Source: a virus
Lineage: Duplodnaviria > Caudoviricetes
Virus record (IMG/VR): IMGVR_UViG_3300042914_002678
Length of the DNA: 64,000 nucleotides
Strand: one strand, 5' to 3'
This document shows positions 13,954 through 38,646 of this stretch, piece after piece. How positions within the stretch are numbered: position 1 is the first letter of the stretch; every line of letters begins with the position of its first letter. The notes beneath the pieces were generated by a model. The model saw nothing but the letters and a program-made list of their open reading frames with translations. It was not told the origin of the DNA and did not search any database. A program made the position numbers and the translations under genes.

Positions 13954-14765
13954 CTCAATTATTTACTTGCACATCCGATTCTCCTTATGATAGGCACACC
14001 TATGAAGTTGTGCTTAAAAGTGGTAAAAACGTAATTTTTGAGAACTGGGAGGACACTCAGAGGTATTGGTTTGAGCACAGTCAGATTCCTGATTTTTTGG
14101 ATCTTATAATCGTAAAGGACAAAAAGAAAAGTAAAGAAAAAGTAAAGAGTGGTGGATTTGGTCAATAAATAATTTTAATCATAGAGAAACTTATGACTCC
14201 TTTGTTTCTCGTAACAATTTTATCTTGTTCTGATATTGTGTTGATTGCGAATAGATTGGTAAATGTTAGACTATTGACACCAGAACAAAAAATAGAAATT
14301 CTTCGGGAACTTAAAAAAGTAGTTCCTTCCTGTCCTTTGATTATTAAACCAAATGGAACAAAATGAATCACAAACTGATAAATGGGATCGAGGTCTAACT
14401 CTTTTTGAGGAGAGTGTATTAAAACCTGATCCAGAACTTCGTCAGTGTGCTCACAATCAAAAGTGTTACAATGAACTCATGGCAGTGCGTGAGCATGTGT
14501 TAGAATACCTCAAAACTTTAAGACAATGAGTTCCACTTACATATACTTTGTTATCTTTTTTTGTATTGCTTACTTAATTGTTACCGATCAATCCATAGCG
14601 AGGGCATTTTATATGCTGACTCAACTTGCTCAAGTACAATATGAAAAAACAAAGTGGTGGATAATTCACTCACCAGATAATATCATAGTTAAATGGTTGA
14701 TTTACAGAAAATCTATGAAGATGGCGAAAGAACTGATGGGAGAATTGGAAAAGAAGAATAAATAA
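13950..14765 (+). CDS. Run of small hypothetical ORFs (13950-14168, 14193-14366, 14526-14765 and others)
   Basis: ORF track plus hand translation; tightly coupled starts and stops; ATAAATA at 14165-14171. Confidence 0.55.
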
Positions 14766-14768
14766 TAA

Positions 14769-14820
14769 TGCTTTTATGTGTGGTAACTAAAAGCAAAAGG
14801 GGGGATCCCCCCCCTTTTTT
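14769..14820 (+). ncRNA. Candidate antisense sRNA A (hairpin plus terminator) upstream of a GIY-YIG gene
   Basis: ATAAATA 14758-14764; stem TGCTTTTA/TAAAAGCA; G/C terminator hairpin followed by T6; 14772-14786 is complementary to leader 14845-14859. Confidence 0.5.
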
Positions 14821-14833
14821 ACTGCGTAATTCG

Positions 14834-14841
14834 TATAAATA
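14834..14841 (+). promoter_or_regulatory. T4-type late promoter TATAAATA
   Basis: Exact T4 late consensus upstream of ATG 14866. Confidence 0.75.
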
Positions 14842-14865
14842 GTATTACCACACATAAAAAGCAGT

Positions 14866-15480
14866 ATGAATACTCTACGCATATACACTTATCGTATATC
14901 CTTTGAGGAAGTGCCGTATTATTATTATGGGGTCCATAAAGAAAAAAATTTTAACGAAGAGTATTATGGGTCTCCTGTAACCAACAGATGGTGCTGGGAA
15001 ACTTATACTCCAAAGAAACAGATATTAGAATATTTTGTTGATTGGGAAGAAGCGCAAAGAGTAGAAGCAAGAATAATAAAAGAGTTTTATAATAAAGATA
15101 AGTGGTGTCTAAATGAAAATTGTGCTGGGTATATATCCTTACAGAAAAGAAGTGAGGCAGGAAAAGTTGGAGGTAAAAGGGGGTCGGCAAAATGTAAAGA
15201 AATGGGAATCGGAATATTTGGGATGTCCTCAGAAAAAAGAACTGAAACTGCTAAAAAATCTGTTAAACAGGCAAAGAAAAATAAAACTGGTATATTTGCT
15301 CTAACAAAAGAGCAATTAGTTGAGAATGGAAAAAAAGGTGGTATAATATCTTCTAAAAAGTTAAACTCTCAAAAGTGGATGTGTTTGGAAACTGGTATGG
15401 TATCTACCATAGGTCCTCTTACAAGGTATCAAAAAGTGAGGGGTATTGATACTTCTAAAAAAGTAAAAATAAATAACTAA
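14866..15480 (+). CDS. Free-standing GIY-YIG (Seg-like) homing endonuclease
   Basis: N-terminal IYTYRI...YYYYG...YYGS...E..R.E...I...LNEN catalytic-domain pattern and a basic GK/GGK-repeat C-terminus. Paralogous to 21198-21863. Confidence 0.7.
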   Translation: MNTLRIYTYRISFEEVPYYYYGVHKEKNFNEEYYGSPVTNRWCWETYTPKKQILEYFVDWEEAQRVEARIIKEFYNKDKWCLNENCAGYISLQKRSEAGKVGGKRGSAKCKEMGIGIFGMSSEKRTETAKKSVKQAKKNKTGIFALTKEQLVENGKKGGIISSKKLNSQKWMCLETGMVSTIGPLTRYQKVRGIDTSKKVKINN

Positions 15481-15499
15481 AACGGGGGTAAAACAAAAA

Positions 15500-19700: not shown

Positions 19701-21087
19701 GAACATTCTCATAAGTGGATAGTGGGACTTTATACTCCTGATGGTGGTAGATTTGATATGCTACACCGATACTTTGGAACATTTGATACAAGAGAAGACG
19801 CAAAGGTATTCGCAGCAGATTATAAGGACAAATATACAAAACCAGGATTTATTTCCAGAACCAAAATCTTTCCATTATGTGAGGTATTAAAGGACACTTG
19901 AAGAACTGGCACAGGGTATCTCCACAGGTGCCCTTTTTGCCATATAATAACTTCAGTTCAAACAAAGCGATGACCACCATCACTCAAGAGCACTGGGACA
20001 CACTCTACACCAAACTCTATGAGGCGTATGAAGAGTGCAGCAAAAACTATGATGAGACTTACCGACAAATGATCGGTCAAGTTCTGGATCACATGATCTA
20101 CAACAAACCTTATCTGAACATCAAATGATCAGAGCAATCCTCAATCAGTTTCCAGTTAAGTATGGAACTTACACTGCTGAAAACAACAAGATCCGCCGAA
20201 CATTTTCCAACGGTTTCAGTTACATCGTAGAAGAATTTAACTCACCAGAAGAAGCACAACGTATCGTCAGTGACCTCAACTATCTTACAGGCAAATGACT
20301 GAAACCAAAACCTATCCCTACCTCAAATACATTCCACATTGGTTTGCTCTTCGTTTTATTACATTTGCTCCACTTGCGGTCGTCCAATCAACAGTAGATT
20401 TTATTTCTATTTCTTTGGATAAACTTTATGATAAAATGGATAAAGTTCTTCCGCAAGCATATGTTGAAAAGCAAGTAGAATGGGATCAGTTGCCCAAACG
20501 AAATCAAGAGGCGATTGAGTATCTTGCAAAAAAGCGTGATACTACCAAAGAACGAATTCTCATTCAAACTGTGAAACCATGACTGACCACGAAGAACTCC
20601 CAGTATCAAACGAATTCGTCACATTTGTAAGAATTCAACTTGACCACGAACAAAGACAACAACTCCGTCGTTATCTAAATCTTCATTATCTTGGTGATGT
20701 GAATTGTAATGAGTATGATGAGAACTTCAAACTTGTTCCCAAATACCCAGAGAAAGAAACACAAGAGTTCAAAGATGCTATGTGGAGAGCAGATATGTCA
20801 GTAGATTATCAAGTCAAAGTGGTTTATGATGTGAATGGTAAATGTAAAATGGAGTTGCTATGAAACCTTATCTTTTGATTGTTGGGGACAACTACTACCC
20901 TTCTGCTTATACTGGTGATTGGGTTGCTTGTTATTCTACCGAAGAAGAAGCAAAAGAAAAATGGGAAGAACTATCTAAAGATAAGTATAGTAATGATTGG
21001 TATGAAATCGTTGATTTGAGGGAATGGATGGAAGATACTACATTTGATACTTTTGGACCTACTGGACTTATTGGAGACCCACAATAG
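16781..21087 (+). CDS. Run of about 17 small overlapping hypothetical ORFs (early-island type)
   Basis: ORF track; ATGA/TAATG overlaps; no motif recognised with confidence. Confidence 0.55.
19892..19956 (+). promoter_or_regulatory. Early promoter / stem-loop element with palindromic box
   Basis: GGACACTTGAAGAACTGGCACA, short GGGTATC..GGTGCCC stem, TATAAT 19943-19948. Near-identical to 23880-23943. Confidence 0.7.
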
Positions 21088-21102
21088 TAGAATAAATAGA
21101 AG

Positions 21103-21160
21103 TGTCTGTTTGGACGGCAATCTCTACAGACAAAAGATTAGGTGCTTTCGGGCACCTTTT
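21103..21160 (+). ncRNA. Candidate antisense sRNA B upstream of a GIY-YIG gene
   Basis: ATAAATA 21092-21098; stem TGTCTGT/ACAGACA; terminator GGTGC-TTTCGG-GCACC-TTTT; TTTGGACGGCA is complementary to leader TGCCGTCCAAA 21177-21187. Confidence 0.5.
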
Positions 21161-21164
21161 CTAT

Positions 21165-21172
21165 TATAAATA
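21165..21172 (+). promoter_or_regulatory. T4-type late promoter TATAAATA
   Basis: Exact consensus upstream of ATG 21198. Confidence 0.75.
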
Positions 21173-21197
21173 ATAATGCCGTCCAAATAGAATAGAA

Positions 21198-21863
21198 ATG
21201 ACTAAAAATAGTCCTAGAATTTACACATATAAGGTTACCTTTGAAGAAGTTCCTTATTACTATTATGGTAGTAAAAAAGAAAGGTATTTTGATGAAGAGT
21301 ATTGGGGTTCTCCCGTAGCAAACAAATGGTGTTGGGGACTTTATACTCCAAAGAAACAGATATTGGAATATTTTGAGTTTAGTGATGAAGGATATATCAA
21401 AGCACAAGAAGTTGAAGGGAGATTAATTAACCCAGTATATAATACCGATAAATGGTGCTTAAATGAAAGTTGCTTGGGAGTTTTTTCTTTAGAGCAAAAA
21501 AGTAAAGCAGGAAAAAAAGCATATGAACTTAAATTAGGGGTTCATTCAAGAAGTAAAGACCAAATGAGTAAAGATGGTAAAAAAGGTGGAAACAGCAATA
21601 GAGAAAATAAAACTGGAATTTGTGGAAGAAGTTTGGAAGAAATGATTGAACACGGCAGAATAACTGGTTATAAAAAGAAAGAATTAAATATCGGTGTTTG
21701 TGGTTTATCAAAAGAACAGAGAATTGAAAATTCTAAAATAACTAATTCTCAAAGATGGAAATGTTGTATAAGTGGTTATGTATCTACTGCTTCTGGTGTA
21801 GTTCAGCATCAAAAAGGAAAAGGAATAGATACATCAAAAAGTAATAGACGCAGAATAGCATAG
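21198..21863 (+). CDS. Free-standing GIY-YIG (Seg-like) homing endonuclease, paralogue of 14866-15480
   Basis: RIYTYKVTFEEVPYYYYG...YWGSP...TPKKQILEYF...DKWCLNE is nearly identical in pattern to the 14866 gene. Confidence 0.7.
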   Translation: MTKNSPRIYTYKVTFEEVPYYYYGSKKERYFDEEYWGSPVANKWCWGLYTPKKQILEYFEFSDEGYIKAQEVEGRLINPVYNTDKWCLNESCLGVFSLEQKSKAGKKAYELKLGVHSRSKDQMSKDGKKGGNSNRENKTGICGRSLEEMIEHGRITGYKKKELNIGVCGLSKEQRIENSKITNSQRWKCCISGYVSTASGVVQHQKGKGIDTSKSNRRRIA

Positions 21864-21928
21864 GACACTTCTCAAACTGGAACAAGGGCACTTGAAAACG
21901 GGTGCCCTTTGTCGTATAATGACTTCAT
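21863..21928 (+). promoter_or_regulatory. Early promoter / stem-loop element with palindromic box
   Basis: GGACACTTCTCAAACTGGAACA; stem AAGGGCAC/GTGCCCTT; TTGAAA 21892-21897, 17 nt, TATAAT 21915-21920. Confidence 0.75.
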
Positions 21929-24900
21929 AAGAAACAAACCGATGAAACCACTTAAACTCTTTCAATACGATAAAAAAGTTTGGGATGATGGTGATGCCGA
22001 CTACACTTGGCAGTTCGGTATCATCAACAACAAAACATTATTCTGGGTTCATTATGAAAATCCCAGTCGTTTAGTTTTTAGTGATGGTGGATTACACATC
22101 CTATTCTCATTCTTTACTAATTCTTTATTTGGAGTAGATTTTCAACTTGGTAAGGTTGGTTTGAGTTTCAATTTTTTCACAGAATACTTTGATGGGTGGG
22201 AAGAATGACTAACCAACAACGAGCAGAAGAACTCCTAAAAGTTATTTGTAAAAGTGAAGCACACAATACTGCTTGGATGCTTCAAGAGGTTCTTCAACAA
22301 CTTCGTAAGCAACTATCAGGAACTAATAAGATTGATTTTACTGATGAACTGGATGTGATGTTTAATGCTGGATGGGATGAATGTCTCAAAGAGATTGATG
22401 CTATTTGTGATGAACTTTTAGAACTATGATGACTAACACAGCACACCAAATCTGGGAAGCATTCAAAGCAGAACTTACACAACCAGCAACAGATGATATG
22501 AAGGAAGCACTTGCTACTGCTATTCGTGTGATTTCTTCTCTAATTTATAGAGATGGAGTGCTTGCAAATGAACCTTGGCTTACTCATACTGCTCAAGAAC
22601 TAAATGAAATTGCTGGTGATGTGGAGGCACTCTAATGTCTATTGAAGATGGATTGACTTATCGGCACAAAGCATATGCTAATTCTATGAAAGCATATCGT
22701 CAGGCAAATCCCGATTGGAAAGAACAACAACTCGCAAGTGAAGAGTATGCTAAAAAATGGATGGAAACATCTGCTCGTGCTTATCAAATAGCACAAGAAA
22801 AACTTGCTGAATTGAATTTGGAGGCATTATGAAAGAACAAGCAAAGAAAATAGATGATGCCTACTGGAGAGCAATAACTAATGTTCCCGATATTTACACA
22901 AAGGGTCGGGTGCGTTTTGCTGCTGGTCTCCGTGAAACTATCAACCAACTCCAACAAAGCCCTGGTGTGATTATGTGTGCTGATGTGTTAGAATTGTGTG
23001 ATGAATTGGAGGCACTATGATTGAACTTCGTATCGTTGAAAATGAACTGGCAATGAAACCAGACATTCAGTATCGTTTTATGTTGTTTTCTGTTGATGCT
23101 TCTGGTGCTTTGTGCCCACCAAATCCTGATATGAAATGGTCTGAATGGAGAACTGCCGAATATGTGAAGGCAGAGGAGATTGTAAATGACTAAAACTCAA
23201 TCAGCATTAGAACGAGTTATTATTGAACTTGATAGTTGGTGTGATAATTGGACACCAACATCTTATAATGACCCTCGTATTAGTTTGAGACAGATTGCTG
23301 ACCGTGCCCGTGATGTTTTAGAACAGGAAGATGACTGAACCATTAAATCATAAACTTGATGTAAGTAAAATCAAAACACTCACAGATGTAAAGAATGTCT
23401 TTGAGTGTATGTGTTTGATTACTAATGCGAGTGAAGGATACGAAAAGTATGAACTCATCAAAGAATACTTCACTATTCCAAATGAGCCACAAGAACTTAC
23501 TGGATTTAAACTACCACGCAAGTCATTAGAAGAAATCTCACAAGAGTTTGATGAGAAAATTGATAAACAGATTGAGGATGTAGAGTATAAGTTCGCACAA
23601 CTCAAACATTATCAAGAGTATCAGTTTAGTAAAAAGATTACCAGGATTATTGAAGATATTGAACACGCAAAAAAATATGGTAGTTTTCCAGCAAAATTAG
23701 ATTACTCTAAACTTACTGCGACTGGTGGCAATATTACTTCCAATTTTGTAATCAAATCAGGTGGTAAAGAAGTTGGGTATTATACATTCGGTAATGGATA
23801 TTTGAGGTATCATATGGATAAAAAACCGACTGCGATTGTTCGGTTCTTTATGAATAAACTTTTAGATTTCCGTTGGATAGACACTTGAAGAACTGGCACA
23901 GGAGCATCCCACAGGTGCTCCTTTTGCCCTATAATGACTTCATACACACAGACACCTGATGAAACGCAACAACTTTGATTTTATGGATGCTTGGATTGCT
24001 GTGATTGCTGGTGGTGCTGTTTTGGTTTTTCTTGCTGCTCCCATCACAGGAATTATGAATGTCATTACAACTCAACAAGCACTCAACGAACAGTGTGGGA
24101 CTAACTACAACTTCTTCCAAGTTGCTACTGCGGGTGATAATCTTTCCCGTCTTTGTCAAATCAAAAATCAAACGGTGACGATTAAATGACTGAACGAGTA
24201 AAATTCACACAAGTCTCTAGAGTAATCTGTCCAAAGACAGGTGTGCATTATCTTGATGCAGTTGATATGAATGGGATTCACTGGATGGCACAAATGGAAA
24301 CTGGTGTAGAAAAGTGGATTACATATAAAAAAGTTTGGTATAAAGACCCACAGCAACCTTATGACGTTTGAAGAAATCCTAGAAGAATACGGACAGGAAG
24401 TATTAGACATATACTACGAACTCTTCCCAGATAAAAGTATCTCAAAGTTTCCTGACCGTTTCTGTGGTTTTGTTGGTGAATATCATGATTTTGTGTTAGA
24501 CTGTTATCATTCAACTGGTAGTGATGAACTGGAAACACTTGAAGACTTTATGAATGGTGTATTTCAAGAGTATTATTACTATTGCGAAAAGACAGCAACA
24601 GGATTTATATTTTATAATGAAGACCGATGACTGAGACCGACATCTCAAAAGTTCTCATAGAAGGAGAATACGCAACCATTATGGGAGTGAAGTATAAGAG
24701 AGTGGAAGAACCAAAGACAGCAGTAGAAGAAGCATATAAAGAAGTTTTCGGCAAGTATCCTGAAACTGGTTCAGATGCAACTAAATTTGATATTCAATCC
24801 TGGAATATCTTTCGGTATGGTTGGAATGCAGCAAAGGAAGATGGAGTGGTTGATGAACCAGAGTATTATGATGAAGTAGAGTGGGATGAGAAAGATAATC

Positions 24901-35419: not shown

Positions 35420-35543
35420 GACTTTTATTCTTGGAGTTGGAGTTGGTGTTCTCATCACAGTGGGATTTGCACTTCTATCTGTTGCATCCGATGCTGATGA
35501 TGTGATTGGCAAAGATGACGAAAACTACTACAATAAATAATAA

Positions 35544-35598
35544 TGCCTGCGTTGGGTGCAATCTTCACAGGTAGAGGAGGGGCAGAGATGCTCCTTTT
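35544..35598 (+). ncRNA. Candidate antisense sRNA C upstream of a GIY-YIG gene
   Basis: ATAAATA 35533-35539; stem TGCCTG/CAGGTA; terminator AGGGGCA-GAGA-TGCTCCT-TTT; GTTGGGTGCAAT is complementary to leader ATTGCACCCAAC 35613-35624. Confidence 0.5.
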
Positions 35599-35602
35599 CT
35601 TG

Positions 35603-35610
35603 TATAAATA
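35603..35610 (+). promoter_or_regulatory. T4-type late promoter TATAAATA
   Basis: Exact consensus upstream of ATG 35636. Confidence 0.75.
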
Positions 35611-35635
35611 CTATTGCACCCAACAAAGAGCAGTT

Positions 35636-36337
35636 ATGACTAACAAAGGCAAAATTTATTGTGCCCATTGTATTTTTACTGGAAAGAAATACATAGGACA
35701 AACAAAACAAAAATTACTTTGCGATAGAATAGCAACTCATTTTGCAGATGCTAATAAAAATCATAGTAATGGTAAGTTTCAAAGAGCACTAAAAAAATAT
35801 GGAAGAAGTGGATTTATATGGGGAGTAATTGAAGAGTGTGATTTTGATACGTTAAATGATAAAGAAATCTATTGGATTGCAGAATACAAAACTGTAGAAA
35901 AGGGATATAATCTGTCTCCTGGTGGTGGGCAACCTCCAGAATATTTTTCTAAAGAATATTTGGTAGAAGAACCAAGTGGCAATAGAAAAGAAATTAAGAA
36001 TCTTTCGCAATATTCTAGGGAAAATAACTTAAATGCCGCACATATGCACGAAACACTTTATGGTAAAAGGTTGCACCATAAAGGATATAAACTTATACCA
36101 AGAACTGATGTAGAAATTGAAAGATATGAAAATGAAAGAAGTATAAGAGAGGATACTAGTAGAAAAGGAGCGCCTGGAGAAAAAAATGGTAGAGCGATAC
36201 TTGATTGGGACAAAGTTAATGAAATAAGAAAATTACATAATACCAAGAAATATAAAAATCAAGAAATATCAAATATGTTTGGAATTAAAAAAGTAACATT
36301 AGAAAAAATAGTCTCCAATAAACTGTGGACAGTTTAG
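35636..36337 (+). CDS. GIY-YIG homing endonuclease; true start probably ATG 35636, not 35543
   Basis: KIYCAHCIFTGKKYIGQT...DRIATH...EIYWI...GYN motifs. The late promoter lies inside the longer ORF-track version. Confidence 0.85.
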   Translation: MTNKGKIYCAHCIFTGKKYIGQTKQKLLCDRIATHFADANKNHSNGKFQRALKKYGRSGFIWGVIEECDFDTLNDKEIYWIAEYKTVEKGYNLSPGGGQPPEYFSKEYLVEEPSGNRKEIKNLSQYSRENNLNAAHMHETLYGKRLHHKGYKLIPRTDVEIERYENERSIREDTSRKGAPGEKNGRAILDWDKVNEIRKLHNTKKYKNQEISNMFGIKKVTLEKIVSNKLWTV

Positions 36338-36392: not shown

Positions 36393-37969
36393 ATGAGGTT
36401 AATGGCACAAAAGTTTCTCTATATCTTGGACTATTTCGTTCCACAGTTTCAATCGGAATATGGTGGATTGCTCAACGTAATCGCAGAAAATGATGAAGAA
36501 TGTTTTGATGTTGTTGTTGAATGGGATAATGAAACCTGGACAGAATACTACAGCAAACTACGAGAAAACATTGTAAAAGCACAACGCTTTCCTCTTCTTG
36601 AAAACGAAGAATCCCGAGTTGTTGAATCTTTTACCACCTGATGATTGAAACTTCAATAAATCGTCTTGAGTTTAACTTAAAACAGCAGTATCAAGAACGT
36701 ATTACTCATCTTCAGCAAAAGATTACGGAGCAACAACATGAAATCTTGCGACTCCAAGAGCAAATCAAATACATGTCAAAAGACAGATTTTACGATTGCT
36801 GAGTTTCCGCATCATCCGCCCGAAGGTTATAGTTATGAGTTTGAAGAGTTCAAGCGTGGTGTGGTCGCTGTTTGGTTGCGTTGCCATCGTAAGTTTGACT
36901 ACAATAATGGTGCCACAACTCGTACCATTTGGGGATTCTATAAATCCAAAACCAGAGAATACTTCGCCCCAGTCAATAGTAAGACCATCGGTGCTTGTGT
37001 AAATATCAAGGACACGCGGAACTATACCGCGATGCCGATTAAACTTTCACCACTAGAACTTGCATTTGTATGACCTACGAACCACAAGTCAATGATTATG
37101 TAAAATGGACAAAAGGAGTTGAGGGTTGGGTTTACTTTAAGGATAAAGAATACATTACCATTGAGTATAGTGTTCGTCCTAAAGATGAAGTCAACCTTGA
37201 GTGCTGCCCTATCCATAAGAATGAGAGATTACTTGTGATTTGTTATAATGAGCAATGGAAAGAGTTGGAGTACATTACGTCACGAAAATCAATCTATGAA
37301 GAAACAGAAAAATGCTTGGCGATTGCTTGCTAAAGCACTGGGAGAAAAAGCAAGTAAATGTGATAAAGAGGCGGATAGGGTTGCACTTATCCGCCTTGTG
37401 ATGTTTCTGTCTATTCTTATTACCAACTGTTTCATTGTTGCTAATGCTATCAGGCATTGGAATGATAAAACAGAAATCTATTTGATTATTGATGAGAATT
37501 ATGTGCCAAATAGTGGAGTATTAAAGTTAGGATCGTCTAAAGTGTCACTATAATGTAAGCACAGAATCTATGGACTGCTACGACGACATCCAAATTGAAG
37601 AATTGCAAAACTTTGATTTCGTTGGAGAAGATTTGATTGATTTGATTGAAGAAAACAACGATTTCAACATCAAAGATTACATCAACGGCAACTACGATTA
37701 CTGAGTGACAGTTTCCAAACTGTCCACTAAATCACCCACACACCTCTTTAATCCTTTATTATTCTCAAATGACTGAACACATCCCTAACGTGCTGTCTCA
37801 CATTCAAGAACTGAAAGAAACCTGGCGTCGTCAAGATTTCACGTTCACTAAACAGCAACAAGAAGAATACGATCTCTTGCTTGCTACTCGCCGCGAACGT
37901 GTTAAGCAATTCTATGCTGAGGGTCGCGTCTTTAAGGGTTCCTATAAAGCAAAGGAAGAGGACATCTAA
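36393..37969 (+). CDS. Run of small hypothetical ORFs
   Basis: ORF track (36393, 36738, 37070, 37248 with likely start about 37284, 37769). Confidence 0.55.
37707..37727 (+). promoter_or_regulatory. Perfect palindromic box GACAGTT-TCC-AAACTGTC
   Basis: Most symmetric copy of the upstream early-promoter box; precedes ORF 37769. Confidence 0.65.
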
Positions 37970-37998
37970 ATACTAAAAAGTAGTGTTTAGATACTAAA

Positions 37999-38646
37999 AT
38001 GAAAACCTTTCAGGAGTTTATGTCTCTTTGTGAAGCATCTGATGCTGATACTGCAAAGCAACTTGGTTGGGGTGGTGGTGCATCTGTCACCCGCCAAGGT
38101 GAAGGTGGTAGAGTAGGAAGAGAGCGCAAAAAGTCTACTCCTGAAAGACGCAGAGTAAAACACGTTGGTGGTGGTAAAACTGAACCTGTAGATTACAAAC
38201 CACGCAAAGATATTGGTCAACAAAGACAACGTTCTGAGCGTGAACAACAACCAACACAAGAGCGTGGAAGTGCTAGAGAAAGACAACTAGCAGCAGCAAA
38301 AGAAGAAAGAAGAAAAGCAGCACAAGCAAGAGCAGCAGCAAAGAAAGGTGGTGGAGAAACACCTACAGCAGCAAAACCAAAAGCAAAAGAAGTAGCAAAG
38401 ACTGCTACTAAGTTACTTGCAACCAAGAAAGAAAAGAAACCAGTAAGTCCTGACTACAAACCAGCAAAAGCATCTGGTTTGTCTGCAAAAGAAAGAAACA
38501 AGCAGACTAGAGAAGGTGAAAGAATGTTGAGAGGTATAATGAAACAGCAAGAAACTGAGAAGTATAAGAAAGCAACTGGAGAATCGCCAAAAGGTAAAGC
38601 AAAGACCAAGATTCTCGCTCACGTTGAAAAGAGAATGGCAAATTGA
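37999..38646 (+). CDS. Highly basic K/R/A/E-rich protein, probably late-expressed
   Basis: Low-complexity charged composition; late-type TCTAAATA at 37965-37972. Confidence 0.6.
   Translation: MKTFQEFMSLCEASDADTAKQLGWGGGASVTRQGEGGRVGRERKKSTPERRRVKHVGGGKTEPVDYKPRKDIGQQRQRSEREQQPTQERGSARERQLAAAKEERRKAAQARAAAKKGGGETPTAAKPKAKEVAKTATKLLATKKEKKPVSPDYKPAKASGLSAKERNKQTREGERMLRGIMKQQETEKYKKATGESPKGKAKTKILAHVEKRMAN

Follow-up and report, generated by a model that had tools for sequence, protein, structure and literature searches.

The window, i.e. the whole 64,000-nt stretch of DNA that was analysed, derives from an uncultured T4-like cyanomyovirus which was found in lake-water metagenomes and has its nearest cultured relatives among the Kyanoviridae. 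A gene for a Seg-like homing endonuclease (gene A) is preceded by a compact control head, in which a late-promoter-like box (P1), a 5′ stem-loop, an intrinsic terminator, a second late promoter box (P2) and a leader complementary to the stem-loop follow one another (Table 1). This layout had originally been predicted from the letters of the locus, and each of its elements was recovered at the predicted place, base for base.

Table 1. Positions of the features of cassette A and of the related cassettes B and C, in the numbering of the window
Feature	Position	Strand	Remarks
Whole control head of gene A	14757-14866	+	portable, ~110 bases
P1, late-promoter-like box AATAAATA	14757-14764	+	overlaps the stop codon of a 79-aa ORF (14526-14765)
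5′ stem-loop, 8-bp stem and 11-nt loop	14769-14795	+	stem 14769-76/14788-95
Anti-leader arm, 5′ half of the stem and most of the loop	14769-14786	+	complementary to 14845-14863
Intrinsic terminator	14796-14820	+	G6-AT-C8 hairpin and T6 (14799-14820)
P2, perfect T4-type late promoter box TATAAATA	14834-14841	+
Leader arm	14845-14863	+	nearly the entire 5′ UTR of the predicted P2 transcript; pairs with 14769-14786
Gene A, 204-aa Seg-like homing endonuclease	14866-15480	+	phrog_314, T4 SegC
Sigma-70-like promoter (TTGAGA, 16 nt, TG-TATAAT)	15320-15347	+	in the 3′ part of gene A; 11/12 matches
Second copy of the junction box AATAAATAA	15468-15476	+	23 nt before the 106-aa downstream ORF
Cassette B, same module with different arms	21091-21200	+	before gene B (21198-21863); covariance model 117 bits
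Cassette C, same module with different arms	35532-35638	+	before gene C (35636-36337); covariance model 65.6 bits

The 15-nt complementarity of the leader (14845-59) to positions 14772-86 that had been noted for cassette A is exact. When one bulged A is allowed, the pairing grows to 18 bp (14769-86/14845-63), stopping 2 nt short of the ATG at 14866; RNAduplex yields -23.6 kcal/mol for this arm and its leader. P1 is followed 4 nt later by the 5′ stem-loop, whose base coincides with the predicted transcription start. In isolation, the segment bounded by P1 and the terminator folds into two hairpins (-25 kcal/mol, z = -4.0); in the read-through RNA, a long-range helix forms around the terminator (-42 kcal/mol, z = -6.6), and none of 200 shuffles folded as well.

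Gene A matches phrog_314, annotated as “homing endonuclease” (E 6.6e-10), shows a weak tblastn match to T4 SegC (29% identity, E 8e-4), and shares 52% identity with gene B. Its N-terminus bears a GIY...YIG-like motif. Neither gene A nor gene B matched the Pfam GIY-YIG family (PF01541) even at E 10, whereas gene C passes (24.3 bits, cut-off 22.6). Similarity between genes A and C is not detectable, and none of the solved structures is related to gene A by sequence. Of the original prediction that the same layout precedes three GIY-YIG genes, the layout was borne out, but gene A does not reach the Pfam family. The sigma-70-like promoter within gene A is a candidate for restarting early transcription of the downstream gene past the cassette terminator, as judged from its sequence.

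The arm sequences of cassettes A, B and C are mutually unrelated, and the order of parts is identical. Duplex energies are -24 to -26 kcal/mol for cognate combinations and -6 to -15 kcal/mol for non-cognate ones, and the three cassettes are predicted by this modelling not to cross-react. P2-type boxes (TATAAATA) occur three times in the 64 kb, compared to 4.7 copies expected, and all of them are P2 boxes of nuclease genes. Of the 14 ATAAATA sites in the window, six belong to the cassettes. A covariance model derived from relatives found exactly three matches in the window, all preceding nuclease genes. The placement of the P2-type boxes, the clustering of ATAAATA, the z-score of the read-through fold and the covariance model matches together indicate that the layout exceeds chance. 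Searching the entire window against Rfam, which includes the C4 antisense RNA family, did not reveal any match at the gathering score.

Comparison with alleles lacking the homing endonuclease gene (HEG-less alleles) delimited the inserted DNA. At site A, 30 HEG-less contigs carry the 79-aa ORF (phrog_3344) and the 106-aa ORF (phrog_507) next to each other, about 20 nt apart. Their empty junction, AAAAATAAATAA, comprises the stop codon of the 79-aa ORF and, 16-17 nt ahead of the 106-aa ORF, a late-promoter-like box, and this box is present in all 30 alleles (the loci listed for the junction comparison are L110, L134 and L171). The insert of the window is flanked by two AATAAATAA boxes, at 14757-65 and 15468-76, whereas empty alleles have one. 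Site A is an insertion hot spot, with different nuclease cassettes residing there in five other loci (L171, L032, L062, L064, L068). At site B, the flanking genes of eight HEG-less alleles (L180-L187) overlap in GTGA and TAAATA is absent. The insert, which spans about 21084 to 21954, supplies a stop codon for the upstream gene, P1, the hairpin, the terminator, P2 and the nuclease gene, as well as a stem-loop with a sigma-70-type promoter and a new start codon for the downstream gene. Since the empty site B lacks TAAATA, P1 is part of the mobile element rather than a leftover of the target. The idea that P1 is a mere insertion seam was thus discarded for site B, the empty site being boxless; at site A, P1 could still be such a seam. 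Presence/absence polymorphism at a precise intergenic site in collinear genomes was seen at both sites, which identifies the nuclease unit as a free-standing mobile homing-endonuclease cassette that has inserted between conserved genes of the phage.

The right end of cassette B (21864-21954) consists of GGACACTT, followed by a G/C stem-loop with TTGAAA in its loop and by TATAAT, and its new start codon (MKPL) is fused to the downstream gene. A PeSL-like exit promoter stem-loop of this kind occurs in about 38 of 64 related cassettes.

Scanning IMG/VR for relatives of genes A and B retrieved 80 loci, which together with phages S-SRM01 and B3 provided 65 distinct upstream regions. The order of late-promoter box P1, stem-loop, intrinsic terminator, late-promoter box P2 and leader is common to all 65 cassettes. 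TAAATA does not vary at P1 in any of the 64 aligned cassettes and is equally constant at P2, and an xTAATG context downstream of the box is shared by P1 and P2. The local stem starts 4-6 nt past P1 in 65/65 cassettes; the leader arm starts about 3 nt past the P2 box and ends 0-5 nt before the ATG. Expected transcription starts follow from the geometry of T4 late promoters. As had been proposed for cassette A, both helices begin at the predicted +1 of their own promoter, and neither reaches upstream of it. The 5′ hairpin and the terminator hairpin fold in all 65 P1-to-terminator stretches, the distance from P1 to the end of the terminator helix being about 50-66 nt. Read-through is likely, because the U tract of most terminators (49/65) comprises four U only. 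P2 reads TATAAATA in 62 of the 65 cassettes, while P1 does so in just 19 and has C at the second position in 11. The late-promoter consensus of cyanomyoviruses is NATAAATA (PMC2984593), and P1 agrees with it in 54/65 cassettes. Being less canonical than P2, P1 may be weak. In nine loci (L011, L021, L025, L028, L042, L049, L061, L066 and L070), the true TATAAATA is immediately preceded by one or two degenerate P2 boxes in tandem, of the TTATAAAC type.

The genes located behind the module code for Seg-like, I-TevI-like, HNH/NUMOD3, endonuclease VII-like and other NUMOD3 proteins; judged from these sequences, one module type serves at least five nuclease families. According to the covariance model, complete relatives harbor one to six units per genome, with six in S-SRM01. 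Two loci, one of them in S-SRM01 (L087 and L093), have an identical control module, arms included, before two different nuclease families, indicating that the module is exchanged as a unit whose 3′ border is the start codon. Among cultured phages, a blastn search with cassette B detected the module in S-SRM01 and in B3/B23 only. The leader of the F-CphI gene of phage S-PM2 contains a terminator and TATAAATA, but neither an upstream arm nor P1; the published RNA work on S-PM2 is therefore no test of the module.

Pairing of arm and leader is conserved far beyond the window. Duplexes of the 65 cassettes are 14-23 bp in length (mean 16.9), and their energy averages -23.8 ± 1.9 kcal/mol for cognate partners, compared to -12.2 kcal/mol for non-cognate ones and -11.1 kcal/mol for shuffled leaders. 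In a hand-checked alignment of one class (29 sequences), seven of 15 arm pairs change on both sides with 98% of the cells paired, and the terminator stem is nearly unchanging. When 59 sequences were aligned under guidance of the model, and thus fitted to the structure, 14 of 15 arm pairs and all eight terminator pairs change on both sides, with 95% of arm cells paired. The covariation score of this alignment was 0.759, compared to 0.220 after shuffling (0/500 as high) and 0.09-0.13 when the partners were slid. Co-variation of loop and leader in homologues had been named as a check of the original prediction, and its outcome is strongly positive, in the score as well as in the cognate energies. 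The duplexes contain 70 G-U pairs and not a single A-C mismatch, indicating that the pairing has been selected on the sense-strand RNA and not as a DNA repeat. On these comparative grounds, RNA pairing of arm and leader may be regarded as good as proven.

The closing stem of the 5′ hairpin occurs in 35 versions, and its cognate halves pair with -6.4 kcal/mol, compared to -3.5 kcal/mol for swapped halves. The loop part of the anti-leader arm is mostly unpaired (probability 0.67). Where local hairpin and arm-leader helix conflict, the arm-leader pair is retained and the hairpin pair is lost, at one position in 11 of 29 sequences. Pairwise identity is 0.58-0.63 in the variable core and 0.60 in the P1 spacer, the least constrained spacer. 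Diversifying selection on the arms was considered and set aside as unproven, since the variable core is no more diverged than this spacer; enforced orthogonality within a genome was likewise abandoned, one genome having two cassettes with the same arms and specificity. In alignment A3 (columns 32-50, one class), identity reaches 92-95% in the pre-terminator spacer and in the 3′ portion of the loop that stays unpaired, compared to about 60% in the arms and the P1 spacer of the same class. Part of the pre-terminator spacer extends the terminator helix. The conservation of these columns suggests a sequence-specific constraint on the putative short RNA beyond pairing.

In the mechanism that we propose, the terminator would halt transcription arriving from upstream, so that nuclease mRNA would originate from P2 only, late in infection. 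Pairing of the leader with any RNA that carries the anti-leader arm would extend to 2-6 nt from the AUG and thereby deny the 30S subunit access to this leader, which lacks a strong Shine-Dalgarno sequence; the duplex may also serve as a substrate of RNase III. In cis, the arm would reside on transcripts reading through the terminator. In trans, it would be delivered by an RNA of about 50-60 nt extending from P1 to the terminator, and also by the 3′ ends of terminated upstream transcripts, with the loop offering a variable core of about 8 nt for first contact. As a net outcome, the potentially harmful nuclease would be supplied late, in small amounts and in a self-limited manner.

A separate RNA is plausible because P1 is invariant and, at site B, element-borne, its spacing to the hairpin is fixed, and hairpin and terminator are present in 65/65 cassettes. 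We lean slightly towards a leader mask which acts in cis on read-through RNA and, in addition, in trans via the RNA of about 55 nt. As an addition to the cis mask, a discrete antisense RNA of this size, initiated at P1 and ended by the terminator, thus appears somewhat more probable than its absence. The terminated antisense RNA of the original prediction is partly supported by the conserved and element-borne P1, the hairpin and the terminator, but its case is weakened by the fact that a cis mask would use the same arms. The balance is about even for the broader proposal, namely that T4-like cyanophages possess a family of late-promoter-driven antisense RNAs of about 55 nt, each with a loop “address” of about 8 nt matched to the adjacent nuclease leader, together making up a portable silencer, naturally diversified and for the most part orthogonal, that moves as one unit from one selfish nuclease gene to another, unrelated one.

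A T4-type translational mask acting exclusively in cis is a serious but distinctly less probable reading. In that case, the arms would matter only on read-through transcripts, and P2 transcripts, devoid of the 5′ arm, would be translated; P1 would be inactive, irrelevant or a by-product, and the short RNA would be functionless. This logic is proven for I-TevI, I-TevII, I-TevIII, segB and mobE of phage Aeh1 (PMC2988022), and it is how such hairpins in metagenomic endonuclease leaders are interpreted in the account given in PMC2677866. The read-through RNA indeed forms a long-range helix enclosing the terminator, and read-through could suffice, considering the short U tracts with four U in 49/65 cassettes. 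The arm-leader pairing prevails over the local hairpin, and in the 65 cassettes the two partners are always adjacent and never apart, as expected of a cis element. However, a mask confined to cis gives no reason for an invariant, element-borne late box 4-6 nt from the hairpin base in 65/65 cassettes, for the co-variation of a local hairpin competing with the mask, or for helices that halt at the predicted P1 start; moreover, a late promoter directly upstream of the 5′ arm would yield masked RNA only.

It is improbable that the P1 RNA is made but has a positive or neutral role, for instance guarding the mRNA from 5′-end-dependent decay or guiding a processing cut. The duplex would start at the extreme 5′ end of the P2 transcript, and both promoters belong to the late class, so both RNAs would be made together, which would suit such a role; yet a helix reaching to 0-5 nt from the AUG of a leader without a strong Shine-Dalgarno sequence has the geometry of an inhibitor, and the characterised relatives of such logic are all repressive (PMC2988022). 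Very unlikely, in our view, is a feature at the DNA level, i.e. an inverted repeat or promoter seam for recombination or cassette insertion without any RNA function. The location of the site A insert between two AATAAATAA boxes, at a hot spot with different cassettes, would agree with such a feature, but the 70 G-U pairs against no A-C mismatch indicate that selection has acted on the sense RNA, a native box is missing from site B, and the arms lie inside the element instead of at its ends. That the short RNA is a nuclease-bound cofactor or guide is scarcely credible and had already been ranked as less likely, since the closeness of the RNA to the nuclease gene is all that speaks for it, while the module is shared by unrelated families (genes A and C being without detectable similarity), precedes two families in identical form (L087, L093), and would encode an RNA matching its own leader only.

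The antisense RNA reading, in cis and in trans, has several known counterparts. The c4 antisense RNA of the immI operon of bacteriophages P1 and P7, reportedly described by Citron and Schuster in 1990, likewise precedes its target and shares its strand; base pairing of the c4 loops involves the downstream ribosome-binding region, and relatives differ in specificity by matched changes in loop and target. Unlike the RNA proposed here, c4 arises by processing of an operon transcript, not by termination at a signal of its own, and controls an antirepressor. In the type I pairs IstR-1/tisB and OrzO/zorO, too, the 5′ UTR of a gene coding for a harmful protein is complementary, over about 18-20 nt, to a small RNA that is encoded next to it and ends at a terminator. 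These pairs are, however, divergent, reside on bacterial chromosomes and rest on differential RNA stability, and addiction logic is inapplicable in a lytic phage; the likening to a type I antitoxin that had been suggested for cassette A holds as an analogy of mechanism and goes no further. In lambda PR′-tR′ 6S RNA and in StxS (PMC7547250), a late promoter followed immediately by an intrinsic terminator gives rise to a short, possibly regulatory RNA, but these RNAs depend on Q antitermination and have host targets rather than a neighbouring leader.

Closely related in logic are the T-even genes I-TevI, I-TevII, I-TevIII and segB and mobE of Aeromonas phage Aeh1, whose ribosome-binding site is masked by a hairpin that holds a late promoter (PMC2988022). 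In these systems, and as predicted for the cassettes, an RNA helix hides the translation start on upstream transcripts, a late promoter between the arms lets late transcripts escape the 5′ arm, and the genes controlled code for selfish nucleases. Cassette A shows both features of such a mask, a predicted helix over the initiation region and TATAAATA between the arms. In contrast to the simple local hairpin of the T4 type, the cassette arms are separated by about 60 nt that accommodate a full intrinsic terminator (65/65), and the 5′ arm is presented in a conserved stem-loop with a second late-promoter box at its base (TAAATA upstream of this arm in 65/65). In ocean-sampling metagenomes, Dassa et al. 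2009 (PMC2677866) observed hairpins containing TATAAATA in the 5′ UTRs of free-standing endonuclease genes of the GIY-YIG and Vsr-like types; these hairpins have two complementary conserved motifs on a stem that holds the late-promoter box, lie at cyanophage-like loci, and were interpreted as cis masks of the T4/Aeh1 type. Their description of these hairpins mentions neither a terminator nor an upstream promoter; compared by this textual description, they are probably the same or a sister element. CfrI of cyanophage S-PM2 (Millard et al. 2010, as cited in PMC2984593) is, among the reported antisense RNAs, the only one known to be linked to a homing endonuclease gene of a cyanophage; unlike the putative cassette RNA, it is a true antisense transcript of about 225 nt from the opposite strand. 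A promoter-terminator antisense RNA for a phage homing endonuclease was not found described in the literature searched. The cis mask is already known. What is new is that HEG-less alleles reveal the whole unit, including P1, as part of the mobile insert, that both helices start at the predicted +1 of a promoter, and that one module serves at least five families.

For virulent phages, the control of selfish nucleases has been worked out in a handful of T-even systems only, and each of these is a cis hairpin. Here, the control unit itself is mobile, exchangeable and self-insulated, having an entry terminator, a private late promoter and putative exit promoters for its neighbours, and it is conserved in dozens of uncultured lake cyanophages and before several nuclease families. 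If the short RNA is real, small-RNA control would join the biology of T4-like phages, and the cassettes would represent a natural source of dozens of RNA-leader pairs, matched and for the most part free of cross-reaction; if the antisense family reading is true, these RNAs would be the first class of trans-acting small RNAs known to control homing endonucleases. The cultured carriers S-SRM01 (six copies), B3 and B23 make the module directly testable.

A contig of 222 nt from a polyA metatranscriptome library matches positions 15264-15485, at the 3′ end of gene A, with one mismatch; DNA carry-over is possible, and as an assembled contig it cannot show transcript ends. Searches of sequencing runs listed no RNA data set that contains the control region, and neither outcome speaks for or against the short RNA. 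Elsewhere in the window (37966-38010), a CTAAATA box and, behind it, a short inverted repeat lie right before an ATG and may represent another small late-promoter leader structure.
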